Part shown: positions 3,491 through 28,377 of the stretch, piece after piece
Layout: each line of letters begins with the position of its first letter
Numbering within the stretch: position 1 is the first letter of the stretch
DNA from: a virus
Taxonomy: Duplodnaviria > Caudoviricetes
IMG/VR virus record: IMGVR_UViG_3300050343_000001
Location: 1 to 59,555 of that record
DNA length: 59,555 nt
Reading direction: 5' to 3' (one strand)
Notes under the pieces: model-generated
Database searches by the model: none
Seen by the model: only the letters and a program-made list of their open reading frames with translations
What the model was told of the DNA's origin: nothing
Position numbers and translations under genes: made by a program

Positions 3491-6316
3491 ATGAACAACT
3501 TAGACTTTTTAAAAGGATTACTCAGCGACTCAGGTCACTATTGCGTGTTTGCCGCTAAAGGTGATGTACGTATACAGAAGTTTTACGATACTATTGAAGA
3601 CACAGAAAGAGCTACACGTAAGTTTATAGCAGACGGGCTGAACACATACTTTGCTTTAAGCACATTTAAAGAACCAACCAAGGATGCAGGTCGTAAAGGT
3701 ACGAACGCACACGAGTTGAAGTCTTTCTTCCTCGACTTGGATTGTGGACCAACATACGAATACCCTACTAAAGAAGCCGCAGTATCCGCAGTGCGTGATT
3801 TCTGTAAGAAGTTATCCCTACCTAAACCCTTGATGATTAACAGTGGGCGTGGTGTGCATGTATATTGGCCTCTTACCGAAGCACTTTCGGCGGAGCAATG
3901 GGCTGTGGAAGCTGACAGATTAAAGCGATGCTGTTCTGAGAACGGATTACTTGCTGACCCTGCAGTCACTGCTGACGTGGTACGTATACTACGTATGCCA
4001 AACTCAAAGAACTATAAAGAAGAGCCGCCCTTACCAGTAGAGTTCCTTGGTGTATCTATGCCAGAACCTATTGCGTTAGAAGACTTTACATCTAAGCTAG
4101 GTGTACTAGCGAAGCCAGTTATCAAGATTGACTTGGGTACTGACGCTCTTTACGAAGCCTACGCCGAGAACAGCGAGAATGTTTTCAAGACAATTATCAA
4201 GAAAACTGTAGAAGGTCGAGGATGCGGGCAGTTAAAGTATATTGCCATGAACCAAGCAGAAGTTAGCGAACCTCTGTGGAGAGCGGGGCTATCTATTGCA
4301 AAGTTCTGTAGTGACGGGGACATGGCCGCAGTAAAGATATCAGAGAAACACCCTGCATACAACGAAGCAGATATGCGCAAGAAGATGGACGAGATAAAAG
4401 GCCCATACACCTGTGCGCGTTTCAACGACCTTAACGAAGGTACATGTGAGAACTGTCCTTTATGGAACGAGATCAAATCGCCGATTGTACTGGGTAAACG
4501 TATTCGGGAGTCCGAAGGTGAAGTGGTGGTGTCTGCACCGATATTAAAGGCAGGGGTAAAGAAGTCCGAAGACTTTGAGATACCAGAATATCCTAAGCCC
4601 TACTTCCGTGGAGCGGCGGGTGGCGTATTCCTACGCAGTAGTAACTCTGACGGGGACATCGAAGAAGAGGTTATATACCATCACGACATTTATATTACTC
4701 GGCGTCTGCATGACATCGAGCTAGGTGAGACGCTAGTGTTTCGCTTACATCTACCGCGAGACGGTGTGCGCCAGTTTAACGTGCCTCTTACGAGTATAAC
4801 TTCCCGTGAGGAGTTCCGTAAGTGCATGGCAAAGGAAGGCGTAACTGCATTTGGAAAGGGTACAGACAAACTTATGGCATACACAACAAAATGGGTTGAC
4901 GAGCTACAGCGTACAACTGTAGCCGACGAGGCGCACCGACAATTTGGTTGGGCAGACGACAACATGGAAGCGTTCGTATTAGGCGACAAGCTAGTCACTG
5001 CGACAAGTACTGACTTTAATCCATCTTCTTCTAGTACAGCAGGGTTAATGGATTCGTTTGAGGCTAAAGGCACCCGAGAAAAGAACCTTGAACTGTTAGA
5101 GTTCTACAACAAACCAAACTACGAACTGCATCAATACGTGGTTGGCGTTGGTTTCGGCTCACCTCTCATGGCCTTGACGGGTTTAAACAGTATGTCTATC
5201 CACCTATACGGCGGTTCGGGCGTAGGTAAAACTACTGCGCAGATGGCGGCAATCGGTATATGGGGTAGCCCTGACGATCTGATGAACAAACCAGAAGATA
5301 CACATAACTCTCGTATGCTACGTGGTGAGGTGATGCACAACATACCCTTGGTGTCGGACGAGATGACTAACGTAAGTGGTGAACAGATGTCTGACTATGT
5401 TTACCAAGTGTCCGGTGGTCGGCAGAAAAACCGTATGTCTATGAACGGCAACACGGAGCGCGCACGGGGTAAACCTTGGCAACTGCTCGCGTTAAGCTCA
5501 GGCAACACAAGTGCATGGGAAGTACTGGGTCGTCACAAAGCATCGCCGAAAGCAGAGATGTATAGGATGTTTGAGATACGTGTTAAAAAGATGGATTTCG
5601 TTAAAGGGGACAACACTGCTACAGCCTACCTTATAAACGACTTTAAGAATAACTACGGGCATATAGGCGTAGAGTATATCCAATGGGTTATAAACAACAA
5701 AGAAGAAGTACGTCGTATTGTTGAGTCTGTACGTACACGTCTAGACAAAGCGGCTGGACTTAGCACGGAGCATCGGTTCTGGTCTAACGGGAACGCGGTT
5801 ATTATCGCAGGGCTTATCATCGCTAATAAGTTAGGTCTTGTTAACTACGATGTCAGTACTGTGTATAAGTGGGTTGTGGGTGAACTGCTTTCTCGAAACA
5901 GCTACGTCAGCGATACAGGTTCGTCTGTTACTCAAACACTAAACAACTACTTGTCAGAAAACTTCAACAACTTGCTGAAAATCGAAAGCACTGAAGACCT
6001 TCGTGGTAGGAACGAGAATGGCCTAGATCAACTTGTACCTGTCGGGGCATCACCTAAAGGCCATCTGGTTGCACGTTACGAGCCTGATACGAAGCTACTA
6101 TTCCTGCGGATAAAACCGTTTAAAGAGTGGTGTGTAGATCAGCAGATAAACTATCAAGGTATTGTAGACGACTTAAAGAAAAAGTTAGGCGCAAAGCGTA
6201 CCAAGAAACGACTTACTAAAGGCACTGACTTTAACCTACCGCCGGATTGGGTGCTAGAGATGGAGTTTGCAGAGATGGAGCAAGATAATGATGGATCAGA
6301 AGGTATTGAAGGTTGA
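3491..6316 (+). CDS. Primase-helicase (AEP/RepB-like primase, Cys cluster, DUF927-like region, P-loop helicase)
   Basis: FLDLD and SGRGVHVYW primase motifs, RILRMP, C...CENC, Walker A GGSGVGKT, Walker B LVSDE. Confidence 0.85.
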   Translation: MNNLDFLKGLLSDSGHYCVFAAKGDVRIQKFYDTIEDTERATRKFIADGLNTYFALSTFKEPTKDAGRKGTNAHELKSFFLDLDCGPTYEYPTKEAAVSAVRDFCKKLSLPKPLMINSGRGVHVYWPLTEALSAEQWAVEADRLKRCCSENGLLADPAVTADVVRILRMPNSKNYKEEPPLPVEFLGVSMPEPIALEDFTSKLGVLAKPVIKIDLGTDALYEAYAENSENVFKTIIKKTVEGRGCGQLKYIAMNQAEVSEPLWRAGLSIAKFCSDGDMAAVKISEKHPAYNEADMRKKMDEIKGPYTCARFNDLNEGTCENCPLWNEIKSPIVLGKRIRESEGEVVVSAPILKAGVKKSEDFEIPEYPKPYFRGAAGGVFLRSSNSDGDIEEEVIYHHDIYITRRLHDIELGETLVFRLHLPRDGVRQFNVPLTSITSREEFRKCMAKEGVTAFGKGTDKLMAYTTKWVDELQRTTVADEAHRQFGWADDNMEAFVLGDKLVTATSTDFNPSSSSTAGLMDSFEAKGTREKNLELLEFYNKPNYELHQYVVGVGFGSPLMALTGLNSMSIHLYGGSGVGKTTAQMAAIGIWGSPDDLMNKPEDTHNSRMLRGEVMHNIPLVSDEMTNVSGEQMSDYVYQVSGGRQKNRMSMNGNTERARGKPWQLLALSSGNTSAWEVLGRHKASPKAEMYRMFEIRVKKMDFVKGDNTATAYLINDFKNNYGHIGVEYIQWVINNKEEVRRIVESVRTRLDKAAGLSTEHRFWSNGNAVIIAGLIIANKLGLVNYDVSTVYKWVVGELLSRNSYVSDTGSSVTQTLNNYLSENFNNLLKIESTEDLRGRNENGLDQLVPVGASPKGHLVARYEPDTKLLFLRIKPFKEWCVDQQINYQGIVDDLKKKLGAKRTKKRLTKGTDFNLPPDWVLEMEFAEMEQDNDGSEGIEG

Positions 6317-6569: not shown

Positions 6570-6595
6570 GCCCCTGCTTCGGCGGGGGCTTTTTT
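6570..6595 (+). terminator. Rho-independent terminator where the two arms converge
   Basis: GCCCCTGC-TTCG-GCGGGGGC-TTTTTT. Confidence 0.85.
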
Positions 6596-9500
6596 ATTCG
6601 TACTCTTCGAAGCTCTTACGCATAGCGTCTGTGTACACGATACCGTTGACCATTTTACCGGTTGTTGTGAGGAACCCGCTGAGAGACTTCTTCAACGCTT
6701 TGCCATCAATCGCATCTTCCTTATATTCTGCAGGCAAGGATTGGTTGAACTCTCGTATATCTTCGCGTATCTTGCGAACCGCTTCTCTATCACCTTGAGT
6801 TTTAGCCATGTTATGCCGACGTAATAACTTACGGCGTCTTTCATCCACAGCGTTTTGTCTACGCCGCTCACTGCTGTTGATCTTTAAATTTTCTACATAG
6901 TCTGCGGGTGCGAAGCCTAACAACTGCATGAACGAGTTGTATGGGTTTATATCATCTACGATTGGGTTGCCCCGCATCGTGTTCGCCCCTTCAGTAGAGA
7001 ACCTTTGGAACTTACTTATGTTGCGCATAGCGGCAGGTGCCATAGCCTCAAGCCCACGTTGAACTTCACCTTCTTGTAAAAGATCATATCCTCGCTCAAC
7101 ACTCAAGCCTACACCAACAACAGGGCCGCCTAGCTGTTCTATAAGTGTGTAGAACCTGCTCTGGTCTTTGTCGATAAACGGCTGGCGATATAACAGGCTG
7201 TTCATAGACACACGACTAGCAATATCCACGCCTAGTAGTTCGTTAGCTAACCCATCATACAACGTACCGGGTAACATCTTACGCATCATAGCTTCGAAGT
7301 CGTCTTCGTCATCATCAGCAAACATATCGTAGATTGCGGCAGCTGCACCCATCAAAGGTAGCCCAGCGACACCGGCCAATGACCCAGTAGTTACCATAAA
7401 GTACGCAAGTTGTTTCCGTGCAATCTTACGGATGTCTGGGTCTGCTTCGGCTAGTGCTTGGTCTACTAAGTGTGCCATGAAGTAATATCGAGACACCGCG
7501 AACCGTTTAAACAAGAAGGCTACGTTACCCACGGGCTTCTGCGCCCACACCGGACGACCTGCGGAAGCCGTGGAACCTAGTGTTAATTCCGTAGTTTTCA
7601 TAGCTTTCTGCGCCGCTGCATCGTAATCGGCTTGGGTCGCTGGCTTTTTACCATTATCAGTACGGTTGTTTAACTCTAAGTCATATGCAGCCATTAACGA
7701 TATTTGGCGTCCAAATCGCTCGCCGTGATGCACAAGGAACCCGCTTACTTGGTTCATCTTAGCTAAAACATCTTTGCGGTTAGTTAGGTCCACATGCTCT
7801 TGATCTATACTTTGGTTAAACATACCTCTAGCACCGGCTTGCTCAACCAATGTCTTATATCTTAAAATATCTTCAGGTGTGTTTGGATCGTCGAAGTTAT
7901 AGTTATCAAACCCTTTGTTATGCTTACCGAGCTGTACTTCTCGTATCTCTGGCTTTCCGTCTGCACCCATAACAGTAATCATCTTTGTAGATGGAGACCC
8001 CATGAACAACTTCGTTGCTCGAGATATAGCTGATGTAGCTTTCCCTCCACCGTACTCCCCAGCTAAATAAGGATGTACCGCCATAGGTATATCAAACATT
8101 ATGTTAAAGGCAGACGATATATTAGCCCCCATCGTCCAGCCGAAACCCATAGAAGTAGCGATTTGTGACCACCGTGCCATTGATGGAGCTTGAGCAAACT
8201 CTGCAACTTGGTCTAGCTTCTCCGCTATATCCATAGTGTCGAGTCGTTTTAGGTAGTTGCCATCTGTAAGTTTGTTTCGGAAAACCTGTATCTTTGCGCC
8301 GTATTCCAACTGCACAAGTTGTTTTTCAATACTTCGAAAGTTATCACGAAATGTTTCTGCGGGATCAACTTCCATTCCCGGCATACCAGATGGAGTAACA
8401 TCACCCAAGGCACCTAGAATACCGCGTTTACCTTCGCTACGCTCTTTACGACTGCGAAACGACTGCATGAACGAGCGTTCTGGAATTGCATCTAAAGACA
8501 GGTCAATAATTCTATCTATAGCTTGTGGGTCTACCCCCGCCACCTGTAGAGCCTGCAACACTTCAAACACAAATGAGGAGGTTGGGGCTTTACCATAGTC
8601 CCTCTTTGCTTCCCGCTTACCAACTTCAATATTGCTGACCTCATCACCACGTCCAATACTTTCTAAGTATTTAACGACGTTTTCCTGTGCTTGCAGCATG
8701 TCTTTTTCAGATGTGTAGTACTCAGTAAACACTTCTAGACCACCATTCCTAAGAGGATCAGGGGCATTGTATGATAGTCTAAAATCTCCATCACGACTTA
8801 GTTTAAAGTAGGGGCGGATGATACCACCTTGAGCGTGTAGTAGGTCAGATAGTTTTTCGAAAGCAGTTTTCTGAGCTTCTGCATCTATACCCAAGGAAGC
8901 GATACGCGCTCTAATGGCAGGCATAATACGGTCCTGCGCGGCCTCACCCATATCACGAGTAATTTTATACAGGTCTTGCCCTTGTTTGCCGAGTAACTCG
9001 TATTCGTCGTTTAAGGTTTTCCAGAGTGCCTTCTTTTCGTCAGACGGTTCACCTGCTTTTTTAGCTTTTGACCTCGGCATGTCTTGACCACCGAACTTTT
9101 GCTTCAAATCGTCATTTAATTTTTTAATCTCTGCGTTCCGCTTTTTAACGTCAACAAAAGATTTCATAACCGTTCTTTCAGTTACCATGTCGTAGTAGGA
9201 TAACCAGTACTTATCATACGTGCTTTGCGGTCGGGCAGGATCAACTTCGTCTTGCGTAGCACGGTTCATCAGTGCCTGCATCCTATTGTACCCTTCAGGG
9301 TTCGCGTTGCGGTAAGCTCTGTAGTCGTTGTATAGTACGTCCACAGGCTCGAATGATTTACGCAGTGCGCCTGATGTTTGGTCGATTAAAACGTTTAACT
9401 CATTAGCAAAAGGTATTCTATCTTCAGCTAATCGTGCCAAGTTGTTTACAGGCTGTACTGCAAGTACCCACTGTTTTAACTTACGAGGCGTGTTCTCGCT

Positions 9501-12500
9501 AATAAAGTCTCTTGCTTGTTCGTAACGACTTTTGTCTCCCAACGGCACTGCTGTAACGTGCTTACGTAACAACTCGGTTGCGCCTTTTGCAGTGCGTCCC
9601 AGCAACAACATGTCAGGTACTGCTCGTGTATCCGGTGCTGGAGTAAGTAACCCCATAACTAAACGATCTATATCGTCGAGCGGTGATTCTGGGGGTTTCG
9701 GCTTAAACCCTAGCATCTTGCGGAAAGCTCGCATGACTGCACTTGCAAACTTCTTCCACCCTGCCATTTTGCCGCCGTCTACACTCATAAGAGCTAGCGC
9801 TCTTTGGAACTCAGGATTACCGAACGCCTCTGCAACAAACTCGTCTAAGTTTTTCGTACCGTACACGTCGCCAAGTTGCGCTCTCGCCGCTTCAAGAAGT
9901 GCTTGCAACTGCTTAACTTCTGGTAAATTAGGGTTAGCTAAAGATGCTGAAGTAACCGCGTGAGCCATCTCGTGTAAAACAGTATGCACGTTCATACCAT
10001 TGTTAGCGTCTATAAATACTGTGTTCGTTGCGGGGCGGAACATACCAGCCGCTTTGCGTCCTACCATTGTAGATAGATCGTCAACTACTTGCACTTGTGT
10101 AGTACCAATAGTTTCGGCCAACTTACCCGCAATCTGACGAACACGCTCTACTGGGTTTGTAGCGGCTATCGCATTAAGAGCAAACTGTAAGTCACCTCTT
10201 TGCAGTGCGTTCTGTATACTAGGTAGCAGTGCTTGGTCTAAACCATGTACCGGATCAGCGAGTAAGAAGCCCAAATCTCGTGAGTGCGCATAGCCATCAT
10301 ACAGACCCATAATTTCTTCGCCTGATATAACTGATTTAGCTTCAGGGTCATACACTATCCTTGTAGTTTGCGGTAGGACGGTAGATACTTTATTATTTTC
10401 TCTAAGCTGAAGACCCGTGCCGATAAGATATGATTCAAACGCAGTGCGACCTCTAACCGGTGTAGTTACGCGGAATAATTCCTCGCCTGACTTCAATGTA
10501 GTTGTTTTAACATCGCTAGCCATAGAACTGTCTAATGCAAGAGTTTTGTTTATCCGTTCGTTTGCAACTTTCAAACGTTCTGCAGCTGCGATTTCTTTTG
10601 CATCTTTGTTTTGCTGCTTTTTAAACGTCCTATCTATACTTTTCTGTATTGATTTAGCGGCATTGACCACGCCTATGTAGGCATCAGACGGATTAAACTT
10701 AGAAGTATCACGGTTAGCCATACGGCGGGCACGTATCATCTCTTGGATAGCACTGTCAGACATGTTTTCGTGAACCCAACGACGTGCGTTCATAGCCGCG
10801 GGCTGTGTTATACCATTATAGAAAGCAAACTGTGCAGGAGTATAATCTTTCTTAATAGTTTGCGTAGCCCCGATAGTCGCTTGCGAACCGATTTCAGCTA
10901 GGGCATCAACAGGTCTACGGAATCGTTTGAAGAATAACTTAGCTTTTTGAGCTGGTTTGTTCCCTTTAAGGGCAGTGTCCGGAGTAGTGAGGAGTTCAAT
11001 AATACCTTCTTTATCCACTGCGGTAGTAACTTCAGGGGCAGCTTGTGCGTCTATCTGTGTATCGTGATACTCTTGTAACCCTTCTGAACGACGCCCGTCT
11101 TCGAATAAGGCGTCAAGTTTAGCCTGAGCTTCTTGGTTGCGAGTATCTTCAGTGGCTTGTAGTTGCTCTTGTGATACTGCTTCCCCTTGAATTTCATTGG
11201 GGGGTGTCGGTGCAAGTGCTGTACCTTCGTTTAGTACGGGCATAACGCGGCGCGGACTATCTTCATCAACACCTTCTACTACTTGCTCGTCAACTTGCTC
11301 TGTAAGGGCTTCAACAGCTTCTGGGGCAACATCTTCGGCTTTGTCTTGAATATCTACTTCAACGATCTCGTTGCCGAAATGTATGTTTCTGCCTCCTCCC
11401 GGAGCATTGTTCTTATCGTTTAAAATCTCTACAGGTATAAGACCTACTCTGGGCTGAACCTCAAAAGTAACAGTTTCACTAGCATCGGAGCCAGCCTTCT
11501 TTTGATTCTTCCCTGTGCCATAAGATTTTAGATGTACAAGTTTAGCTTTGTTGTCGCCAATAGTGGTAAACTGCACAGGCATTTCTTCGTTTTGGAATAA
11601 ACCACCTACTTTAGCGGCTTCCTCATACGGCATGTATATAGTCCTACTTACACGAGGCTGTATTCCTGCACCCTTACCATATTTTTTATCTCGTATTGTA
11701 GTTGCGTCAGGGTACAGATCGTAGATAGAACCTTTCTCTACACTACGCCCCTTTTTCAAAGTCCTAAATCTGCTTACAGGATCGTCTTCTTGTTGGGCTG
11801 CGGCTTCTTCTAGTGTATTGAACTCTGGTCCCGCTGGTCCTCCAGACTCATCAACATTTGACAAATCTGTTCCCACTGGCCCGAGGTTAGATGCTGTAGG
11901 TTTTCCGGAATTTCCACGTTTACCTGACTCATCTCCGACGTTTGCCACGCCGTCTCCACTACCCGAAACGCCTCCTCCAGCTCTTTCGTTTCCAAGTTCA
12001 GATTGTCCATCTGTATCTCCTAACAACGCCCTTACTTTAGCCTTTGTGTCGTCGGAAGTACGAGAGTTTTTTAGGTACTCCTCTAACTGTTCTTTTACTT
12101 TAGGATCAGTAATGGGTAAGCCAAGTATATTCTTATTTTTATTCTTACGTAAAGAGGAGCTTTTAATTATGCCTAGCTCGTCAAACAGCTCGTCAGTTAC
12201 AATAATTTCTTCAGTGACGGGTGTCACTGTACGAGTAGGGATTATGCTTTTACCCTCGCCAAACGCACCAAGTGTAGCTCGTGTACCACCACCGATTAGA
12301 CCACCTGCAATGGCGGCTTCACGATACTCTGCAATGGCATCGTCACTATCAATAGGTAATCCAGCTTGCGCACGTTCTAGCATTTGTTGTCCGACTTCAG
12401 TCAAACTTTCAGTACCAGCACCGCCTGTAGCACGAGAACCTGTACGTGTGAGTACGCCTTTCCAACCTTCTTTAGTAGAACCAACCGGTTTTAGTAACTT

Positions 12501-13205
12501 AAACCCACCTAGCAATAACTTGTCTGCAACACCTTCAAGTGCCGCTTGGCCGAAAGTAGCGGTCAGCGCATCGCCTACATCGACTCTATCTTTTGTACCT
12601 CTAGCTACTTCGTCCTCTTGACGTTGTATGTTGTTACCAAACAGAATCGGAGCGGTTACAAGACCAGCAGCTGTAGCACCAACAACAAACGGCGCAGCTG
12701 CACCCAAAACAGGAGCCGCAACAGGAGCCGCTAGAGTACCTAACGCCGCCGCGCCAAGACCAAGACCTAGTTGTGTACCTTGCTCACCAATAGTTTCACC
12801 TGCGAATGTCAACGCCGAGCCAAAACCATCAACGTCTGTAGACTGTAGTCGCTTAGGTTGTTCAAGGGACAAGAGCCCAAGTTGTTGGCCAGCACGTTCT
12901 TCTACACCGGTACCATACTTCTCAAGAAACCCAAGGCCAGTCTGCTCTCCGATAGTGCCGATAGTCTCACCAACAGCTTGCTTAACTTGTTGGAAACCCC
13001 TAGCACCGCCACGACCTAACGCAGTGCCATCGTCCACGTATAAGTCTTCGCCGTACCTATCTTTGTATGCTTTAAGGTCTTCTTCTCTATCACGCTGAAG
13101 AATCTGCGCTATTTTAGCAAACTCTACGTCTGAAGGATTTTCTCCGGATATAGTAAAGTCGTAACCTTTACCCGTTTGGGAGTCTACGTATTGGAAAATA
13201 CCCAT
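6594..13205 (-). CDS. Giant internal virion/DNA-ejection protein with a zincin-like metallopeptidase motif (large polyvalent protein type)
   Basis: 2203 aa; hydrophobic Gly/Ala N-terminal segment; HEMAH plus downstream EFVAE; last gene of the late arm. Confidence 0.7.
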   Translation of the reverse strand: MGIFQYVDSQTGKGYDFTISGENPSDVEFAKIAQILQRDREEDLKAYKDRYGEDLYVDDGTALGRGGARGFQQVKQAVGETIGTIGEQTGLGFLEKYGTGVEERAGQQLGLLSLEQPKRLQSTDVDGFGSALTFAGETIGEQGTQLGLGLGAAALGTLAAPVAAPVLGAAAPFVVGATAAGLVTAPILFGNNIQRQEDEVARGTKDRVDVGDALTATFGQAALEGVADKLLLGGFKLLKPVGSTKEGWKGVLTRTGSRATGGAGTESLTEVGQQMLERAQAGLPIDSDDAIAEYREAAIAGGLIGGGTRATLGAFGEGKSIIPTRTVTPVTEEIIVTDELFDELGIIKSSSLRKNKNKNILGLPITDPKVKEQLEEYLKNSRTSDDTKAKVRALLGDTDGQSELGNERAGGGVSGSGDGVANVGDESGKRGNSGKPTASNLGPVGTDLSNVDESGGPAGPEFNTLEEAAAQQEDDPVSRFRTLKKGRSVEKGSIYDLYPDATTIRDKKYGKGAGIQPRVSRTIYMPYEEAAKVGGLFQNEEMPVQFTTIGDNKAKLVHLKSYGTGKNQKKAGSDASETVTFEVQPRVGLIPVEILNDKNNAPGGGRNIHFGNEIVEVDIQDKAEDVAPEAVEALTEQVDEQVVEGVDEDSPRRVMPVLNEGTALAPTPPNEIQGEAVSQEQLQATEDTRNQEAQAKLDALFEDGRRSEGLQEYHDTQIDAQAAPEVTTAVDKEGIIELLTTPDTALKGNKPAQKAKLFFKRFRRPVDALAEIGSQATIGATQTIKKDYTPAQFAFYNGITQPAAMNARRWVHENMSDSAIQEMIRARRMANRDTSKFNPSDAYIGVVNAAKSIQKSIDRTFKKQQNKDAKEIAAAERLKVANERINKTLALDSSMASDVKTTTLKSGEELFRVTTPVRGRTAFESYLIGTGLQLRENNKVSTVLPQTTRIVYDPEAKSVISGEEIMGLYDGYAHSRDLGFLLADPVHGLDQALLPSIQNALQRGDLQFALNAIAATNPVERVRQIAGKLAETIGTTQVQVVDDLSTMVGRKAAGMFRPATNTVFIDANNGMNVHTVLHEMAHAVTSASLANPNLPEVKQLQALLEAARAQLGDVYGTKNLDEFVAEAFGNPEFQRALALMSVDGGKMAGWKKFASAVMRAFRKMLGFKPKPPESPLDDIDRLVMGLLTPAPDTRAVPDMLLLGRTAKGATELLRKHVTAVPLGDKSRYEQARDFISENTPRKLKQWVLAVQPVNNLARLAEDRIPFANELNVLIDQTSGALRKSFEPVDVLYNDYRAYRNANPEGYNRMQALMNRATQDEVDPARPQSTYDKYWLSYYDMVTERTVMKSFVDVKKRNAEIKKLNDDLKQKFGGQDMPRSKAKKAGEPSDEKKALWKTLNDEYELLGKQGQDLYKITRDMGEAAQDRIMPAIRARIASLGIDAEAQKTAFEKLSDLLHAQGGIIRPYFKLSRDGDFRLSYNAPDPLRNGGLEVFTEYYTSEKDMLQAQENVVKYLESIGRGDEVSNIEVGKREAKRDYGKAPTSSFVFEVLQALQVAGVDPQAIDRIIDLSLDAIPERSFMQSFRSRKERSEGKRGILGALGDVTPSGMPGMEVDPAETFRDNFRSIEKQLVQLEYGAKIQVFRNKLTDGNYLKRLDTMDIAEKLDQVAEFAQAPSMARWSQIATSMGFGWTMGANISSAFNIMFDIPMAVHPYLAGEYGGGKATSAISRATKLFMGSPSTKMITVMGADGKPEIREVQLGKHNKGFDNYNFDDPNTPEDILRYKTLVEQAGARGMFNQSIDQEHVDLTNRKDVLAKMNQVSGFLVHHGERFGRQISLMAAYDLELNNRTDNGKKPATQADYDAAAQKAMKTTELTLGSTASAGRPVWAQKPVGNVAFLFKRFAVSRYYFMAHLVDQALAEADPDIRKIARKQLAYFMVTTGSLAGVAGLPLMGAAAAIYDMFADDDEDDFEAMMRKMLPGTLYDGLANELLGVDIASRVSMNSLLYRQPFIDKDQSRFYTLIEQLGGPVVGVGLSVERGYDLLQEGEVQRGLEAMAPAAMRNISKFQRFSTEGANTMRGNPIVDDINPYNSFMQLLGFAPADYVENLKINSSERRRQNAVDERRRKLLRRHNMAKTQGDREAVRKIREDIREFNQSLPAEYKEDAIDGKALKKSLSGFLTTTGKMVNGIVYTDAMRKSFEEYE

Positions 13206-18120: not shown

Positions 18121-18579
18121 TTATTCTACTACACGTTGCTTATAATTTCCACCCACAACATTATATCCTAACTTTTGTAACATTGCACCGGTTTTACCGG
18201 CACTTAAACCACTAGAAACACCCATGTATATCTCTGCGGCTTTACGCTCTTTAGCCCATTTTTCAAAGGCTCTCAGCAACTGCAGTCCAACGCGAGAACC
18301 TCTACTTTGTGTAGACACATACCACACTGTGTCGGATGCTATCAAGTCAGTACCGAAATAATGTTCGCCTATAGACCCAAGAAGAATACTATTAGGTACG
18401 CCATTAGCAGTGCCAATGTATGCAAAACGTGTGTCTGGGTTAGTCATAAAGTCATATATTAATCGACCACACTTATCTGGGTCGTAGTTAAAATGCCTAT
18501 AAACACTTTCTTGGTGCATCTGATAGCCAAGATCAATAGCCGCAGGTACATCTTTTGGTTCTATAGGACGTATAGGCAT
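18121..18579 (-). CDS. GNAT-family acetyltransferase
   Basis: IRP start, WYVSTQSRGSRVGLQLL acetyl-CoA motif A, terminal KLGY. Confidence 0.85.
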   Translation of the reverse strand: MPIRPIEPKDVPAAIDLGYQMHQESVYRHFNYDPDKCGRLIYDFMTNPDTRFAYIGTANGVPNSILLGSIGEHYFGTDLIASDTVWYVSTQSRGSRVGLQLLRAFEKWAKERKAAEIYMGVSSGLSAGKTGAMLQKLGYNVVGGNYKQRVVE

Positions 18580-18580
18580 A

Positions 18581-19195
18581 CTAGCTTAACCACCCATGTA
18601 TCTTATTAGTTTGCTCTATACGGTCGTCTAACCCATGATACCCACCATTAACACGCTTAGTAATCCGTTTGATTACATCCTCGGTTACACCTTCGTCGGC
18701 GATATCAAAGAGTTTGTTCTTCTTAAAGAACCACAACGCTGTCTCAAACGCATAGTCTGTAGCAGCTAGGTCGGGGTCAGTCATTACATCAGGTAAACCC
18801 ATATCACTAGAGAAAGAGCGGTAATTTGCCTTACCGGTTAATTGTAAAAATCCTCGACCGATAAAATCTTTAGCATCTTGCTCCGTGAGGTTTCCAAGTG
18901 ATTTACGTAAGTATACTTTCCCTGCAATCTTACTAGGCTGTCTTTCGTACTCTTTGGCTTCTTCTTCCGTAAACCTGCTAGGCCAAGTTCTCATAAGAGC
19001 TTCCCAACCGTAGTTTAAGTTTTCTCGGCAAAGTCTAAAGCCGCCGCTTTCGTGCGCGGCTTGCCCCAGTAAGTGCGCCCCATGTTCAGGAGACAACTCG
19101 TAGTGAGATACAATAGCACGGGCTGTATTTGGCCCGAAGCCTCCGTCGGGTGTAACCCCACATTTCTCTTGCAGTAGTTTTAAAGAGTCACTCAT
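18581..19195 (-). CDS. Endolysin, glycoside hydrolase family 19, with N-terminal peptidoglycan-binding motif
   Basis: PDGGFGPNT, HESGGF...ENLNY, GRGFLQLTGKANY, ITKRVNGG. Confidence 0.9.
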   Translation of the reverse strand: MSDSLKLLQEKCGVTPDGGFGPNTARAIVSHYELSPEHGAHLLGQAAHESGGFRLCRENLNYGWEALMRTWPSRFTEEEAKEYERQPSKIAGKVYLRKSLGNLTEQDAKDFIGRGFLQLTGKANYRSFSSDMGLPDVMTDPDLAATDYAFETALWFFKKNKLFDIADEGVTEDVIKRITKRVNGGYHGLDDRIEQTNKIHGWLS

Positions 19196-19596
19196 TTTGT
19201 AATTCCTTGTTTCTTCTCGTAGCTGCGGAGTCCGCCCAATCCTAACATTCCCATCATCACAGTCATCAAGCTACCCATATCAAACTCTGGTAACGCAGGT
19301 ATGTCAACTCCAGCAGCAGTTACACCAAAGACTATAAGAGGTTGCAACACAAAATGGTAGGCAAAAGCAACGCCACATACCCAACCTATGAATGGTCGCC
19401 ACCCACCTTTGAACAAAGAACCCGATGCAGCTTCGGCTTTGTTTATCTCTAACTGCCCCATTAAGGCTTGCTGGGCATGGTTATCGGACATTGTGGCAAT
19501 CTCATGGGCTAACTTGGCCTTTTGATCTTTGTCCTCAATAACTTTGTCTAGTAGGCCAGTGACAGGCCCTACCAAATTACTTACTAAACTCATCAT
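19192..19596 (-). CDS. Holin (3TM, GTA-type)
   Basis: GWRPFIGWVCG and LGLGGLRSYEK signatures; adjacent to endolysin. Confidence 0.85.
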   Translation of the reverse strand: MMSLVSNLVGPVTGLLDKVIEDKDQKAKLAHEIATMSDNHAQQALMGQLEINKAEAASGSLFKGGWRPFIGWVCGVAFAYHFVLQPLIVFGVTAAGVDIPALPEFDMGSLMTVMMGMLGLGGLRSYEKKQGITK

Positions 19597-19925: not shown

Positions 19926-20435
19926 CTAATCTGCAAGGGGGTTGTCTAATGCCCGCTGTAGTTTGCCCATTAATTTATCTTCTAACTCTTTCATATCGCC
20001 ACTTTGGGATACTCTAACACGTTCTCGTTGATTTTCGAAGCGAACTTCTGCGTTATCAATCATAGTACGAACCTTGTCTTCAGATTTACGCACCATATCC
20101 TCTATACGATCTGTCTGTTGTTCTATGCGTAGTATATCATCCTTCAAGCCGTTCTTGATATCACGACTGTACTCCACAGATTCTTCTACCTTATCAGCGA
20201 TACCCGTGACTTTTGCATCCATGACATCCATCGCTTGTTGGTACGCACCTAGGTCTAGCCCTGCGACCTCCTCGATCTTTTGGTACATAACAAACCCACC
20301 GTACAGACCACCTACCACTGTAGATAAGAACGCAAGTATAGCCATGATAGAACCAAACGACATCTTCATGCCACCGGTCTTAAACTCACGATCTGCGAGT
20401 CCATCAATGTTATCGGCTATCTTGGTAGTATCCAT
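19926..20435 (-). CDS. Single-TM coiled-coil protein (possibly spanin-like)
   Basis: One TM helix followed by a long charged coiled coil. Confidence 0.55.
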   Translation of the reverse strand: MDTTKIADNIDGLADREFKTGGMKMSFGSIMAILAFLSTVVGGLYGGFVMYQKIEEVAGLDLGAYQQAMDVMDAKVTGIADKVEESVEYSRDIKNGLKDDILRIEQQTDRIEDMVRKSEDKVRTMIDNAEVRFENQRERVRVSQSGDMKELEDKLMGKLQRALDNPLAD

Positions 20436-20833
20436 TAGTTCTCAAACTCCATCTCTCCACCGGCGTTCTGTAAGTTTTTCAATGCTTCTAGCTCGTCTCG
20501 TAGCTTTTGTATCTCTAGCCTACGTTGCGCTAACTCTATTTGGTAAAGGTCGTCGCAGTTAATACGAGCCTTGGGTTTATCCAAGGGTATGACTATACGT
20601 GCGTACACGCCTATGTCCTTGCCTCTACTCACTGTATTTAGCCCTGATAGTACACCTGTTACGCCATACTCTAAGTTTACACCACCACCTACAGCATTAC
20701 TGCACCGTGTAGTACCTGTTGAAAACGAATCCGATTGATAGTTCATCGGAGGGCTCGGCAACGCAAGAGAAAGAGAGCTACTGTCTGCTACAGCAGAACT
20801 AGATAACAAGCAAAGAGCTAATACTAATCTCAT
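20435..20833 (-). CDS. Secreted protein with amphipathic beta-strands and C-terminal coiled coil
   Basis: Signal peptide MRLVLALCLLSSSAVA; two mature Cys; VNLEYGV and GVYARIVIPL strands. Confidence 0.65.
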   Translation of the reverse strand: MRLVLALCLLSSSAVADSSSLSLALPSPPMNYQSDSFSTGTTRCSNAVGGGVNLEYGVTGVLSGLNTVSRGKDIGVYARIVIPLDKPKARINCDDLYQIELAQRRLEIQKLRDELEALKNLQNAGGEMEFEN

Positions 20834-21216
20834 GCAGGTTCACCATCTAACCTTGAGCATATCCTAGAAGATATAAGAGTTCTTGATTGGTTAGTCTTCC
20901 TTACCTTTGACGTTGTGCATAGGTATACAGCTTCGGGCATATCTCTTTTTCTTATGTAGACATCAAAAGCTTTATGCTCTTTGTACTCAACTTTCATAAT
21001 CCTATACGTTGTAGAAAAAGGTATATTCATCCAGTTTAAATCAAACAAATCAATCTGGTAATACCTTATCTCTTCTCTTGAATTAAAGAGAGACATCTCT
21101 ACCTTAACCACGTCCTTGACGTGAGACATCTTTACTTCTGGGTATGCGGGGGTCATCTCATGCGGAATTGCACAAGTCCCCCAAACCAAAAAGGCTATGG
21201 TTATCCTACTTAGCAA
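20830..21216 (-). CDS. Secreted beta-rich protein, possibly pilus chaperone/assembly-like
   Basis: Signal-like N-terminus, alternating beta pattern, C-terminal Cys pair; directly follows the pilin-like gene. Confidence 0.5.
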   Translation of the reverse strand: MLSRITIAFLVWGTCAIPHEMTPAYPEVKMSHVKDVVKVEMSLFNSREEIRYYQIDLFDLNWMNIPFSTTYRIMKVEYKEHKAFDVYIRKRDMPEAVYLCTTSKVRKTNQSRTLISSRICSRLDGEPA

Positions 21217-21694
21217 TGCAACTTGCCTGCACTACTGCCGTGTAATTGCCACCGGGTAAGGGTTTAGCTGAACCATACGTAGCACTAGAAGCAGTAGAGA
21301 ACCACGTCGATCCTGCTAGTGTTAAGTTGAAGTTTGTAGTGTTTCCCACAACTGTCTTAGCGGCTTCGTAGGCTGACATCCCAGAGACAGACGTTTGTGT
21401 AACGCTTGTGCTACCTGTCCATGCAACTGTGTCAGATAAGGAAGGCGATGAGCTAAAAGCTGTTGGGTGTGTTATACTAGCTATATAAGCATCTGCTATT
21501 GAAACGTCATACCTCATTATAGGTAGGACACCTCCGTCTGCAGGGGTAGTGCTTAACTTACTAGCAATAGGGTTGCCGTACGCCCCTGCTTTAGTTGTTT
21601 GAATAACACATTTAGCTTCTACGCTACCTGTGATCTCGACGTTAGCTAATGCAGGAAACGCGAATAGCGAAAGTATCGCAATAGAATATTTCAT
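21206..21694 (-). CDS. Fimbrial/pilin-like secreted subunit
   Basis: Signal peptide ending ALA; mature start NVEITGSVEAKC; C-terminal PGGNYTAVVQASC resembling a chaperone-usher pilin last strand; start reassigned to MKYS. Confidence 0.6.
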   Translation of the reverse strand: MKYSIAILSLFAFPALANVEITGSVEAKCVIQTTKAGAYGNPIASKLSTTPADGGVLPIMRYDVSIADAYIASITHPTAFSSSPSLSDTVAWTGSTSVTQTSVSGMSAYEAAKTVVGNTTNFNLTLAGSTWFSTASSATYGSAKPLPGGNYTAVVQASCIAK

Positions 21695-21702
21695 ATTAAA
21701 CC

Positions 21703-22575
21703 TCATTTGTTATACTGCATATCGACCATTTGTTCGTGCAGAATCTGTTGTGCTAAGTTATTACGCAAGGCTTTCTTGTTGTCAGCTATCTCTGAATCAG
21801 CAAGACCGGGGGCGTCAGCATACACGCCTCCATTGATAGACGCATTGTAGTACATAGCTATATTAGTCTGTTGGTTAATAGCCATAATAATGTCATCTTG
21901 TCCTTGTGTCTTAAACAGGGTCAGTGCATTGGCAGATGCAGTCAAACCCATTTCAATCCTATTCTCTTCCTCTTCCTCTTCTTCAGAAAGTATCAGATTG
22001 CCATCTTCATCATACTGAAAGTCTGTATCCGCGTCTATAGCAGCCATAGCATCTTCATCTTCTAGTACATCATACAGCTCAACTACGGGTATTACAGGTA
22101 TAGGTTTGACATATCCCGGACATGCAGGGTTAGATTGTTCGTCGTAACATTCGTCTATTCTATAGCTATATATAACCATAGCATCTTCGACCGTACCTTC
22201 CCCTTCAATGTCAATCGAACCCGTACCCCATTGGGGAGCTGGAATATTCGATAAAGGAAATGATCTAACGATAGTGTTACCGGGAACTCCTGACCAATCG
22301 TCTGTTTTTCGAAAGATATAGCCACCGCCATCAACATTCTTGTTGCCAACGTGGACTTTCATATCATCTTCAGGGTTCTTCACAGTGGTATATCTATACA
22401 GGAGACCATTGATATCAATCCCGGGAATATCCGGTAAAACGGAACCCATGCTCCAGCTCAGTGCTGTGGACGCCGCGTTCCCTGTTGCCCCGTAGCTATA
22501 GGGGTCACAAGAAGAGTAAGAAGGCCAAAGTGCTAATAATAACACTAAGACCTGTTTTTGTTTCAACGTTTTCAT
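21703..22575 (-). CDS. Secreted protein with acidic linker
   Basis: Signal-like N-terminus, beta-rich domain, C...PACPGY, Asp/Glu tract. Confidence 0.6.
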   Translation of the reverse strand: MKTLKQKQVLVLLLALWPSYSSCDPYSYGATGNAASTALSWSMGSVLPDIPGIDINGLLYRYTTVKNPEDDMKVHVGNKNVDGGGYIFRKTDDWSGVPGNTIVRSFPLSNIPAPQWGTGSIDIEGEGTVEDAMVIYSYRIDECYDEQSNPACPGYVKPIPVIPVVELYDVLEDEDAMAAIDADTDFQYDEDGNLILSEEEEEEENRIEMGLTASANALTLFKTQGQDDIIMAINQQTNIAMYYNASINGGVYADAPGLADSEIADNKKALRNNLAQQILHEQMVDMQYNK

Positions 22576-23071
22576 TGAAAATCTTTCTCATTGGGTTGTT
22601 CTGTTCGCGTTGAATAGTTTGCTCAACAGCTTCCATTTCCCATGCTAGCCTAGCTTTATCCCCCACCAACCCATCCTTGGGGCAGGGCGTCCCCGCGTTG
22701 AGCATGGCTTCAAACACGCGAGAATCTTGGCACATTACAGATACCGCTGCCACTTTCATACCCATATCATACATGGTTTTGGCGTTCTTTAACTTTTCAC
22801 AGTTCATATCCCGTACAGTTCTACCTGCGGATATACCTAGTATTTGTGTTTGCACAGCACCAGCAACGCCTACAGTACATAAGTCAGAGTTACTTGCGCT
22901 AATCTGGGGTGATATAGCAGAAGGTGGTGGACTATTAATTGTAGTGTCCATCGTGCCGCTAGAAGTGACTGTGCTTTCCGACTTAATTGTGTCGTCTTCG
23001 TTAGCAGGGACAACGTTACCTATAGCAAGACCTGCAACAAAGAAGAGTATCGCTATAAATAAACGTTTCAT
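22505..23071 (-). CDS. Secreted, C-terminally membrane-anchored Cys-containing protein
   Basis: Signal peptide, four Cys, hydrophobic C-terminus. Confidence 0.65.
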   Translation of the reverse strand: MKRLFIAILFFVAGLAIGNVVPANEDDTIKSESTVTSSGTMDTTINSPPPSAISPQISASNSDLCTVGVAGAVQTQILGISAGRTVRDMNCEKLKNAKTMYDMGMKVAAVSVMCQDSRVFEAMLNAGTPCPKDGLVGDKARLAWEMEAVEQTIQREQNNPMRKIFNENVETKTGLSVIISTLAFLLFL

Positions 23072-23304
23072 TTTCTTTCCACCAGTCTGTCTAGCTTTTC
23101 TTCTATCTTGTCAAATTTACTCATTATTTGACCAAGCACTTGGTTAGAGTCGTACTTAGTGACGTACTCTTTAGCTAGTTCTTCTCGAGTTCTGTTAAGT
23201 AGGATAGTTACCCGCTTGACTTCTTCATGGTGGGATTTAATCCACCACACCAAAAAACCGCCCCCTGCGGTTAAGCCAATATTCCAAATTGCAGCCATCT
23301 CCAC
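23068..23304 (-). CDS. Small TM plus coiled-coil protein
   Basis: N-terminal hydrophobic helix; ATGA overlap with the next gene. Confidence 0.6.
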   Translation of the reverse strand: MEMAAIWNIGLTAGGGFLVWWIKSHHEEVKRVTILLNRTREELAKEYVTKYDSNQVLGQIMSKFDKIEEKLDRLVERK

Positions 23305-26947: not shown

Positions 26948-28108
26948 TTATGTTAATCCAAGTCCTTTAGTGTTTTGAGAGAACGAACCCTCCCACCAGT
27001 TTTTATACAACGCTTCAAAATGTTCGGTCATAACAGGGGGCAGTTTAAATACGTCAGAATACGAACCTGTACTACTAGGCTCTTTCGAGTTTTTAATCAT
27101 GTAATCCAAGCTAGGGTCTGCATTTTCCATACATTTTATACCTCTTTCTTTAGCGTAGGACCAAAAGTCACTTTTGAAAGAAGACCCCGATGCGTAGTGC
27201 AACATTATAATGTTTTCGCAGGCGTCTAAATTAGCGTGATATCTAAGGTTCGATAGCTCTAAAGAAGTATTCCCAAACCATCTTTGAACCGCCATAGTAT
27301 TAACATTGTCTACAGTAGCGAACGAAGTAGCTTCAAGAGGTTCTAAAAAGAAAGAAGCATTGCCGTTATACACAATATTGTCTTTAAAATTACTCTTACG
27401 CCTATAGTTAGAAAAGCTAAATGAGTTAGTATCCCCATTAGGCACTAAGTTATATTCGTTTAATATAACCTCTACATCCGCTTTAACTTCTTCTAAAGTA
27501 TTTATATCTTTATTGTACATATACCCTACAGAGCAGCGGTTTTTAAGGGGTATACCAAACACCCAACCATAAGGTCTTGCGATAGCTAATGTCTCACTAA
27601 ACCGTGGATATTCCCAAGAACACTGTGTTACATGTACGGCGTTTACAGGAATATACTTTGACATCTCAAAGTCTTCAAAAGAGGAAGGTCTGCCAGAACA
27701 GTCAATAATATAGTCTGCATCTATGTCATCTGAAGATACGTTAGCTTCTTTTATAGACACTGAATCTTTTAACTTATCATAGACAAAACCCTGCAATAGA
27801 GTTGCATCAAAATGCAAAGCCGTTGAAGGGCTCGGGAAGTCATGGATAAAAGGCTTTCGTTTACTCCCCCAACCTTCTTTATAGATACCTGTCTTTACAG
27901 TCGCGCCTACAGAATCAAAATGTCTTGGCGAAAAGTTTAAAGAATCGTTAAGCCTATTAGGTAGATTTAAAGTTGACCCTTCGCCTACAGCCTGCGGTTT
28001 TATAGAAGGGTCAAAGTACCACTCTATTTCGTCCGCATTTATCCATCTTTTGCAGTGCGCGGCTGTCATACATCCCGCTGTACCTTTACCTATTATAGCA
28101 ACCTTCAA
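26948..28108 (-). CDS. Flavin-dependent (tryptophan) halogenase-like protein; likely TTG start at 28108
   Basis: KVAIIGKGTAG, VGEGS, ATVKTGI (catalytic Lys position), IDCSG, GWVFGIP, FLEPLEATS. Confidence 0.8.
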   Translation of the reverse strand: MKVAIIGKGTAGCMTAAHCKRWINADEIEWYFDPSIKPQAVGEGSTLNLPNRLNDSLNFSPRHFDSVGATVKTGIYKEGWGSKRKPFIHDFPSPSTALHFDATLLQGFVYDKLKDSVSIKEANVSSDDIDADYIIDCSGRPSSFEDFEMSKYIPVNAVHVTQCSWEYPRFSETLAIARPYGWVFGIPLKNRCSVGYMYNKDINTLEEVKADVEVILNEYNLVPNGDTNSFSFSNYRRKSNFKDNIVYNGNASFFLEPLEATSFATVDNVNTMAVQRWFGNTSLELSNLRYHANLDACENIIMLHYASGSSFKSDFWSYAKERGIKCMENADPSLDYMIKNSKEPSSTGSYSDVFKLPPVMTEHFEALYKNWWEGSFSQNTKGLGLT

Positions 28109-28377
28109 TCCATCATCCCCGCGCCAAGGAGCATCCATTTTTCCCACTCCCACTCTGTGAAATAATCATCATCTAGGCCATTAAGGAAATTAAGTTGGTT
28201 TTGGGGTATATCCCTTAGTTTTTGACGGAACTGATTCCATCGCTCATCAGGGTTTCTATCAGGCATGATAATCGCATCTGTTTTTTTCAGCATATTATTT
28301 CTATTAACACGAAACTGTGCGGTAAGATTGTTAATCTCTGTTTCAGTGAGGTTCCAAACATTGTCAAAGTCGCTCAT
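28105..28377 (-). CDS. Tail fibre assembly chaperone-like protein
   Basis: RVNRNNMLKKTD...PD...W..FRQKLRDIPQ pattern directly after a fibre gene. Confidence 0.75.
   Translation of the reverse strand: MSDFDNVWNLTETEINNLTAQFRVNRNNMLKKTDAIIMPDRNPDERWNQFRQKLRDIPQNQLNFLNGLDDDYFTEWEWEKWMLLGAGMMD

Follow-up and report, generated by a model that had tools for sequence, protein, structure and literature searches.

The subject of this work is a cassette of seven genes on the minus strand of IMG/VR virus record IMGVR_UViG_3300050343_000001, between positions 19,926 and 23,304. The record is a whole viral genome of 59,555 bases with an estimated completeness of 97%, and it was analysed over its full length (positions 1 to 59,555, hereafter the window). 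Its portal protein shares 41-45% identity with those of the Pelagibacter phages HTVC023P and HTVC027P, the Roseobacter phages CRP-901 and CRP-902 and a few others, and because of this the genome is assigned, on sequence grounds, to an uncultured marine podovirus of the HTVC023P type. The initial annotation of the cassette, made from the sequence alone, had seen in it an undescribed, usher-less system for the assembly of a pilus or envelope complex. As described below, comparison of protein families across phages indicates that the cassette represents, in this genome, a more widespread module, composed of a signature protein (A), a variable slot of exported proteins (B slot) and a small membrane-anchored protein (C), that travels with the lysis genes.

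Organization of the cassette

At the level of gene organization, the seven open reading frames (ORFs) that had been reported, five of them as overlapping or abutting, are all present on the minus strand at the stated coordinates (Table 1). Successive overlaps from P78 through A, P290, P166, P128 and P132 to C measure 4, 71, 4, 11, 4 and 1 nucleotides (nt) by their coordinates, the longest being that between the end of A and the start of P290, and beyond C, P106 lies 9 nt away, the holin gene overlaps that of P106 by 1 nt and the endolysin gene overlaps that of the holin by 4 nt. A consensus scan across 16-26 kb gave no excess of promoter- or terminator-like sites.

Table 1. Genes of the cassette and of the adjoining lysis cluster, with positions in the window
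Gene	Position	Strand	Description
P78	23068..23304	-	78 amino acids (aa); N-terminal membrane segment and helical tail
A (P188)	22505..23071	-	188 aa; leader, Ser/Thr-rich linker, 4-Cys domain, C-terminal hydrophobic segment
P290	21703..22575	-	290 aa; exported, acidic; first gene of B slot
P166	21206..21706	-	166 aa; exported immunoglobulin (Ig)-like beta-sandwich, pilin-like topology
P128	20830..21216	-	128 aa; small, exported, beta-rich
P132	20435..20833	-	132 aa; exported, Gly-rich Cys-bracketed stretch; last gene of B slot
C (P169)	19926..20435	-	169 aa; N-terminal anchor, long helical domain, C-terminal NPL
P106	19596..19916	-	106 aa; EF-hand-like loop and two hydrophobic segments
Holin	19192..19596	-	PF11351 GTA_holin_3TM, E 1.2e-23; phrog_3427 holin, E 1.5e-33
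Endolysin, GH19 type	18581..19195	-	PF00182, E 4.1e-8; phrog_181 endolysin, E 6.3e-47

When the genes of the whole window were called greedily (n = 77) and passed through a crude signal-peptide rule made for this analysis, five of them were flagged, and these are exactly the five consecutive cassette genes, between 20,435 and 23,071, for which signal-peptide-like starts had been claimed. In family alignments, four of the five leaders score lower in conservation than the mature part and the fifth scores about the same (0.55-0.83 versus 0.84-0.91), and the mature N-termini that follow the A-x-A-type sites are conserved, as exemplified by HEMTPAYP in P128 and DPYSYG in P290. The paired cysteines noticed at the outset are borne out by counts of 4, 2, 2, 2 and 2 in the mature forms of A, P290, P166, P128 and P132, respectively. 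This pattern of leaders and cysteines is as expected, judging from the predicted proteins, for Sec-exported, disulfide-bonded periplasmic proteins. Lipoprotein status was considered for P290, P128 and P132, which have a cysteine near the leader (C23, C15 and C8, respectively), and rejected, given that none of these residues is conserved in the family alignments; consequently, none of the five exported proteins is regarded as a lipoprotein.

The proteins that flank the exported set, P78 and C, each show a single N-terminal hydrophobic segment followed by a Pro-free helical region, in keeping with their first description as transmembrane coiled-coil genes, and Pfam returns only weak coiled-coil-type matches for both. 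No mutual homology was detected among the cassette proteins with hhalign (best probability 4.4%). Contigs from RNA libraries (four runs from four studies) cover 17-26 of the 30 bins between 17.5 and 24.5 kb; this coverage is not counted as proof of expression, since DNA carry-over is possible and contigs give neither level nor strand. A contig from one of these runs omits 119 nt at the P132/P128 junction (window 20,704-20,824), maybe as a strain variant or an assembly artefact.

A and C, the conserved pair

A is the signature protein of the module. Its alignment with the A proteins of ten cultured phages reaches an hhalign probability of 100% (E 4.9e-41), and the conserved part is a four-cysteine domain of approximately residues 63-131 with 16 invariant columns that include C65, C91, C114 and C130. 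Among the PHROGs, A matches phrog_20531 (E 1.9e-14). The AlphaFold2 (AF2) model of A, with a mean predicted local distance difference test score (pLDDT) of 60, consists of a disordered Ser/Thr linker, a hairpin at residues 66-87 between C65 and C91, three short helices bearing C114 and C130, and long C-terminal helices. The Cys-bracketed beta stretch that the initial annotation had pointed out in this 188-aa protein is modelled as a beta-hairpin, although at a pLDDT of about 50, and the oligomeric beta-hairpin pore suggested there is a conjecture. The leader of A ends in an A-x-A-type site without a cysteine, and its C-terminal hydrophobic segment is missing in most other lineages.

For A there was no significant relative in Pfam, in NCBIfam or in profile-against-PDB searches; Foldseek found no structural relative of the low-confidence model in the PDB (best E 2.6); and a language-model search of a protein atlas with the A domain came back empty. 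When bacterial genomes were scanned with a CRP-810-type A alignment, the result was only two short contigs of metagenome-assembled genomes, with no cellular homologue context.

The comparison of C with the C proteins of nine cultured phages gives an hhalign probability of 89.9% (E 1.7e-6) over the C-terminal 22 residues, and a protein search returned 2024 relatives at E<=0.001. The charges flanking the membrane segment favour an N-in/C-out orientation in 42 of the 44 unique window-type sequences and in 34/34 and 2/2 further sequences; judged by this flank-charge heuristic, the topology of C resembles that of an i-spanin. Some relatives of P169 bear the JGI name 'septal ring factor EnvC' (6 of the 120 listed). 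In GenBank, proteins of the A or C type are labelled 'putative lysozyme', 'lysozyme', 'OmpA family protein' and 'DUF2730' (CRP-207 gp73, CRP-810 gp51 and gp53, and MedDCM-S28-C10 BAQ94058); these labels were rejected, as current Pfam does not reproduce them.

A module shared by marine phages

Various phages carry the Cys domain of A, which was found in 13 GenBank records. The carriers include pelagiphages of several types, namely HTVC115P, HTVC202P, HTVC033P, HTVC023P, Baldr and the myovirus Mosig, the roseophages CRP-207 and CRP-810, a T7-like uncultured phage (MedDCM-S28-C10) and Ralstonia phage RSP15. Ten of the cultured or named phages were inspected. In nine, a single exported B protein of about 250-610 aa comes after A, and C comes next, being in those phages too a small protein that begins with a membrane segment, continues as a helical region and terminates in NPL; RSP15 has the A domain only. 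The order of A and C is also seen in the metagenomic collection, where C lies downstream of A in 88/88, 51/51 and 61/66 of the IMG/VR loci with room for it, in three divergent lineages. By hhalign, the four B-slot proteins of the window show no homology to the single B proteins found elsewhere, save for a weak likeness at the C-terminus between P290 and gp53 of HTVC115P (hhalign 21%). This co-occurrence of A and C around differing middles therefore defines the module as A, a swappable B slot and C.

Within the lineage of the window, 142 IMG/VR loci were compared: 99 show the full colinear order A-P290-P166-P128-P132-C, and the remaining 43 are truncated by the end of the locus, with no exceptions. 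An identical six-gene order characterizes a second lineage, in which P166 is only 41-60% identical and the contigs range from 4.7 to 328 kb: 44 of its 55 loci are complete, ten are cut by an end, as read from the coordinates, and one (L342) has no detectable C. The six-gene set also occurs on IMG/VR contigs of 70-328 kb, which indicates that the module has moved between phages of very different genome size, a behaviour also reported for the curli block. Altogether, 546 relatives of A and 323 of P166 were confirmed in IMG/VR.

A further variation is found in loci of the CRP-810 type: 66 of 80 also contain an ORF for a small lipoprotein, which overlaps the start of A and is similar to the A domain in its second, helical half. 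The ORF, with the lipobox LLAGC or LLSAC, is unannotated in CRP-207 (locus 1725-1940) and in CRP-810 (locus 5558-5818), and its presence in most loci of this type ties the module to the outer membrane.

A search of the accessible literature on pelagiphage and roseophage lysis, spanins, disruptin and DUF2730, which took in papers on CRP-810 and on the HTVC027P transcriptome, found no description of the A-B-C arrangement. The module is real, conserved, abundant and, in the literature searched, undescribed. Signal-peptide-like leaders, strong co-occurrence of the genes and an Ig-like fold in the model of P166, three of the features on which the expectation of a new system had been staked, speak for a real system.

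Proteins of the B slot

The four proteins that occupy the B slot in the window have no significant sequence relative in Pfam, NCBIfam or the PDB; the best profile-against-PDB match of P132, to LptH (E 0.93), is noise. P290 shows conserved motifs at its N- and C-termini. P128 has a conserved disulfide pair (C100/C120), and its mature form starts with an invariant histidine; in a distant lineage this start reads H-[EQ]-M-[TS]-P-[AT]-Y. An N-terminal histidine of this kind recalls the N-terminal-His metal sites of CopC or of proteins of the lytic polysaccharide monooxygenase type, and no match to a family was found for it. In P132, C44 and C93 enclose a Gly-rich stretch, and the C-terminal part forms a helix and closes with an invariant FEN; the protein matches phrog_37374 (E 1.2e-8). 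Longer fused forms of P132 were looked for and none was found, which is weak evidence.

In the case of P166, the AF2 model is an Ig-like sandwich (mean pLDDT 88.2, predicted template modelling score 0.75) in which the disulfide pair C33/C163 joins the first and the last strands and the 11 residues at the mature N-terminus are unstructured. Ahead of the first cysteine lies a conserved alternating motif, V-x-I-x-G-x-V, that is equally unstructured in the monomer model. When this model was compared with the PDB by Foldseek, the top matches were chaperone-usher pilins and other strand-complemented subunits (the PapG pilin domain, CfaB, FimF/G, Caf1, CsuA/B and CupE among them), with E values of 3e-3 to 7e-2 and TM scores of 0.4-0.5, none reaching E<=0.001. 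The pilin outline first ascribed to this protein is therefore weakly borne out: the modelled fold is Ig-like and the best matches are pilins, but at low scores. Pfam was empty for P166 at E<=1, and the hidden Markov models (HMMs) of SCPU and Fimbrial gave no match. A language-model search of the atlas pointed weakly to a cluster with SCPU members (rank 26, score 0.95, the family being annotated on 15% of the members), a lead that was rejected since the HMM gave no confirmation. The prediction of a complex of three mature copies scored 0.17 against a mark of 0.42, a result that counts neither for nor against self-assembly, and the comparison with viral models by Foldseek was uninformative. The family is small and purely viral or metagenomic, with 79 representatives at 50% identity; a viral scan with its most distant relative (P0199) found nothing. 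Nucleotide and tblastn searches of the GenBank phage collection with the cassette and with P166 likewise gave nothing, only P188 and P169 yielding cultured relatives.

These features of P166 lie behind the proposal of a minimal fibre or pilus, in which copies of P166 would join into a polymer through strand complementation, either at the surface or within the periplasm, with the help of P128 and with the remaining proteins as anchors, to serve in aggregation or exclusion. The proposal draws on the confident Ig sandwich (pLDDT 88), whose best PDB matches are donor-strand pilins, on the conserved strand-like motif left without structure in the monomer, on the weak SCPU lead, and on the fact that related phages carry a secretion system for fibres, the curli type VIII secretion system (T8SS; PMC9599517). 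Nevertheless, neither the Foldseek E values nor the TM scores of P166 place it firmly among the pilins, and the genome, which is nearly complete, encodes no usher, as had been stated from the beginning. Usher, PapD-like chaperone (PapD_N), Fimbrial, SCPU, CsgG and CsgF are all without a match at E<=10, an outer-membrane channel of any kind could not be recognised, and the signs of export lead no further than the periplasm. Mature P128, with about 105 aa, is half as large as chaperones of the PapD type. Moreover, other lineages fill the slot with an unrelated protein of 250-610 aa, so that the pilin is not essential to the module. For these reasons a surface pilus is quite unlikely, and this part of the initial annotation is not retained. 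A short periplasmic polymer of P166, acting as part of a bridge towards the outer membrane, is possible in view of the model.

Linkage to the lysis genes and lack of a canonical spanin

The association of the module with lysis genes was followed through the loci with three endolysin seeds only (GH19, M15 and amidase). Among loci of at least 9 kb, a match was obtained in 32/78, 22/30 and 33/41 in the three lineages, and all 111 endolysin matches lie within an interval that extends from 1.0 kb upstream of A to 1.5 kb downstream of C. The C gene of HTVC023P is immediately followed by that of an M15 endolysin, in HTVC033P an amidase gene is placed three genes upstream of A, and in one locus of the second lineage the gene directly before A reads like a T4-type lysozyme (N-terminal sequence, by eye). 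In the T7-like MedDCM-S28-C10 the module lies between the tail fibre gene and that of the large terminase, and in Baldr and HTVC202P it is directly upstream of the large terminase gene. This is the position that genes 17.5, 18.5 and 18.7, for the holin and the spanins, occupy in T7.

Two small membrane proteins complete the cluster. P78, an accessory part of the module, matches phrog_462 (E 7.4e-8) and shares 42% identity with gp54 of CRP-810, which is also located just upstream of that phage's A; identity among its window-type relatives ranges from 41 to 98%. P106 is present in 72 of the 78 window-type loci of at least 9 kb, matches PF13202 at E 2.9e-5, which is below the family cut-off, and is 52% identical to gp72 of CRP-207, which follows the C gene of that phage. 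It is probably another lysis membrane protein, and it may be a Ca-sensing partner of the holin.

No ORF with a lipobox was detected on the coding strand between 17.5 and 24.5 kb, and none of the 18 hits of the lipobox pattern over both strands of the whole window is plausible, since each is antisense or has no real leader. The Rz family (Pfam Phage_lysis / Rz) gave no match at E<=10 in six frames, and no spanin-annotated match was obtained among the PHROGs. With no lipoprotein gene in the genome there is no canonical spanin. As it has neither a plausible lipobox ORF nor an Rz-family match, the genome would be scored as spanin-less under the definitions given by Kongari et al. 2018 (PMC6139136). 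In that survey, spanins were not found in 91 of 677 phages, and alternative devices are therefore to be expected.

The same neighbourhood allows for another explanation, the main rival to the one that we favour, according to which the cassette would be a lysis-timing or control apparatus that senses the periplasm or superinfection and holds or releases the holin or the endolysin, in the manner of T4 RI/T or of the Mu releasin. Tight linkage to holin and endolysin likewise fits such a role, P78 and P106 would provide two extra small membrane proteins for it, and there are precedents for membrane-anchored helical proteins, encoded next to endolysins, that act on endolysin release (PMC9239132) and for periplasmic antiholins (PMC11413866). 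However, DUF2730 had no match at E<=1 in nine C-type proteins and one P78-like protein, nor in P169 or P78 themselves, and the charge heuristic would place the helical domain of C in the periplasm. The endolysin, read by eye, has no signal-anchor segment; known regulators consist of one or two proteins and not six; and under this explanation the phage would be left without any outer-membrane step. We consider it unlikely.

Superinfection exclusion or remodelling of the envelope, in which the exported proteins would hide receptors or keep the DNA of other phages out of the cell, is also worth weighing at this point. Export and the likely envelope location of the proteins agree with it, as does the variation of the B slot between host groups, and a role of this kind has been proposed for the curli of related phages (PMC9599517). 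On the other hand, the six genes are embedded among the late genes for structure and lysis, in tight translational packing with those of the holin and the endolysin, and in T7-like genomes they occupy the position of the spanins. The exclusion proteins known are products of single genes, early or prophage-expressed, which also counts against this role. Exclusion is thus very unlikely as the function of the module.

A proposed lipoprotein-free device for the outer-membrane step of lysis

Its position next to the lysis genes, in a genome without spanins, makes the module a good and testable candidate for a new device of outer-membrane disruption. Among the three roles that had been offered for the cassette, superinfection exclusion, aggregation with new hosts and outer-membrane disruption, the last one is the best fit to the context. 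We give about an even chance to the view, drawn from this gene context, that the module is a device that spans the periplasm, needs no lipoprotein and carries out the final step of lysis. In such a scheme, the module would be made late, together with the holin and the endolysin. A and the four B-slot proteins would be exported through Sec and would fold in the periplasm with formation of their disulfides, while anchorage in the inner membrane would be provided by C, in this phage also by the C-terminal segment of A, and perhaps by P78; the helical domain of C would extend into the periplasm. The proteins would assemble into a complex that spans the periplasm and is restrained by the cell wall. 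Once the endolysin cuts the wall, the complex would break or fuse the outer membrane, doing the job of a spanin without a lipoprotein. Contact with the outer membrane could be made by the Gly-rich, Cys-bracketed loops of A and P132, by the beta-sandwich proteins of the host-specific B slot, or by both. Of this scheme, the genes with their leaders, their conservation, their association with lysis genes and the lack of canonical spanins are observed, whereas the location in the periplasm, the assembly, the orientation of C, the membrane contact and the function in lysis are inferred.

A more elaborate version of this scheme, which we regard as doubtful, is that of a categorically new, lipoprotein-free six-protein machine for the third step of lysis, in use among some of the most abundant phages of the ocean. 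A and C would be the inner-membrane anchors, bridged to the outer membrane by the host-specific beta-sandwich set, with one pilin-fold member and maybe with strand complementation, and the Gly-rich loops between disulfide cysteines would behave like viral fusion loops that insert into the outer membrane and rupture or fuse it once the wall has been cut.

Several points weigh against a role of the module in disrupting the outer membrane. The whole case is one of gene context: no part of the module is homologous to any spanin, the outer-membrane lipoprotein that defines these proteins is absent from the window, and no cassette protein is predicted to reach or to insert into the outer membrane. 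The structure modelled for A is poor, with its mean pLDDT of 60, and has no structural relatives, and the topology of C comes from a charge heuristic only. In addition, Mu gp25 shows that a membrane-anchored helical protein encoded beside an endolysin may be oriented towards the cytoplasm and serve in endolysin release instead (PMC9239132). The endolysin seeds are unmatched in 46 of the 78 window-type loci of at least 9 kb, the panel being narrow and many of the loci ending early. Finally, a device of six parts is far more elaborate than any known spanin, and the linkage to lysis genes suits a regulatory role equally well.

The module bears on the question of how spanin-less phages breach the outer membrane, disruptin being the only alternative to spanins met with in the literature searched. 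The module is very common in marine viromes and is present in cultured pelagiphages and roseophages of several morphotypes. If it acts on the outer membrane, it would explain the release of progeny by a large share of SAR11- and Roseobacter-type phages and would represent a second, modular architecture for membrane disruption. Even with a regulatory function, it would constitute a new conserved gene set of the lysis cluster with a swappable, host-specific middle. A role in outer-membrane disruption is directly testable in culturable roseophage hosts.

Genomic setting

On the minus strand, the genes run from that of the portal through tail-fibre-like genes, a halogenase-like gene and the gene of a 618-aa virion structural protein to the cassette, which is followed by the 106-aa membrane protein, the holin, the GH19 endolysin and a GNAT gene, and then by the genes of a protein of 588 aa, of an ejection protein and of two proteins of 680 and 2203 aa. 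The initial annotation had located the cassette between the tail nozzle region and the holin/endolysin pair; the latter indeed adjoins it, and the nozzle could not be confirmed, the sole match of the 618-aa gene being 'virion structural protein' (phrog_3287).

This setting between a virion structural gene and the genes for ejection and large internal proteins would agree with the idea that the cassette encodes ordinary virion or ejection proteins whose hydrophobic N-termini are incidental. Such an idea is hard to reconcile with five cleavable-looking leaders, conserved mature N-termini and even cysteine counts, all of which point to export, and no PHROG structural annotation was found for the cassette proteins. 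Furthermore, the genes keep company with the lysis genes and not with one tail type, occurring in podovirus, T7-like and myovirus genomes. A virion origin is accordingly extremely improbable.

Other genes of the window deserve a brief description. A tryptophan-halogenase-like gene (26,948-28,153, minus strand; phrog_2928, E 1.1e-68) lies amid the tail-fibre-like genes. The 2203-aa protein (6594-13,205, minus strand), encoded downstream of the ejection-protein-like genes, is probably a large injected internal protein, and its last 400 residues or so match a DarB-like antirestriction PHROG (E 1.5e-47). The GNAT acetyltransferase gene (18,121-18,579, minus strand) comes immediately after that of the endolysin; an annotated 'toxin-activating lysine-acyltransferase' is found a few genes downstream of the module in HTVC115P, and a 'putative acetyltransferase' near that of Baldr.

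Comparison with known systems

Disruptin, gp28 of phiKT, would fill the same gap in a spanin-free phage (bioRxiv 10.1101/515445). It is a single small cationic peptide, whereas the module is a multi-protein set of exported and anchored components.

The Mu releasin gp25 (DUF2730) shares with C the condition of a small, membrane-anchored helical protein encoded a few genes from the endolysin (PMC9239132), and one GenBank record gives a C-type protein the DUF2730 label that Pfam does not reproduce. The family itself is without a match in the C-type and P78-like proteins examined, the charge-predicted topology of C is opposite to the N-out/C-in arrangement of the releasin, and C is always accompanied by exported partners.

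Chaperone-usher pilins of the Fim, Pap, CFA/I, Caf1 and Csu systems are comparable to P166 in size, leader, Ig-like sandwich and N-terminal strand-like motif. They differ in that the genome gives no match at E<=10 to the usher (PF00577), the chaperone (PF00345), Fimbrial (PF00419) or SCPU (PF05229), the structural scores of P166 are weak, and its cysteine pair joins the first and the last strands. In type 1 pilins the pair links neighbouring strands.

The curli T8SS comes closer in its distribution. A block of CsgG, CsgF and CsgA-B genes has been described in nine HTVC023P-type genomes (Wittmers et al. 2022, PMC9599517), and a possible part in lysis has been suggested for the CsgGF of phages (Buchholz et al. 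2022, PMC9004378). As it occurs in HTVC023P-type podoviruses and in pelagimyophages, this system shares with the cassette the phage lineage and the ocean habitat, and both are order-conserved multi-gene blocks for exported envelope proteins that are absent from the host and shared between phage families (PMC9599517). In contrast, the genome of the cassette has no match at E<=10 to CsgG (PF03783) or CsgF (PF10614) and no Pfam curlin repeat; the kinase, FecR and cyclase genes of the curli blocks are not seen in it, and the cassette is joined to holin and endolysin.

Lastly, the spanins, as defined by Kongari et al. 2018 (PMC6139136) and represented by the two-component lambda Rz/Rz1 and the unimolecular T1 gp11 (u-spanin), differ from the module in comprising one or two proteins as opposed to six or seven, among which are beta-sandwich subunits, and in that the window has no lipoprotein or lipobox and no sequence relation to Rz. 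The leader of A, with its A-x-A-type end, lacks the lipoprotein cysteine of a u-spanin. On the other hand, the cassette genes form part of a lysis cluster, overlap in part and encode conserved cysteines, in a phage that has no other candidate for the outer-membrane step. A combines an N-terminal export signal with a C-terminal membrane segment, the same end-to-end layout as a u-spanin, and C is similar to an i-spanin in its N-terminal anchor, its Pro-free helical domain, predicted by charge to face the periplasm in nearly all the unique window-type sequences, and its conserved C-terminal motif.

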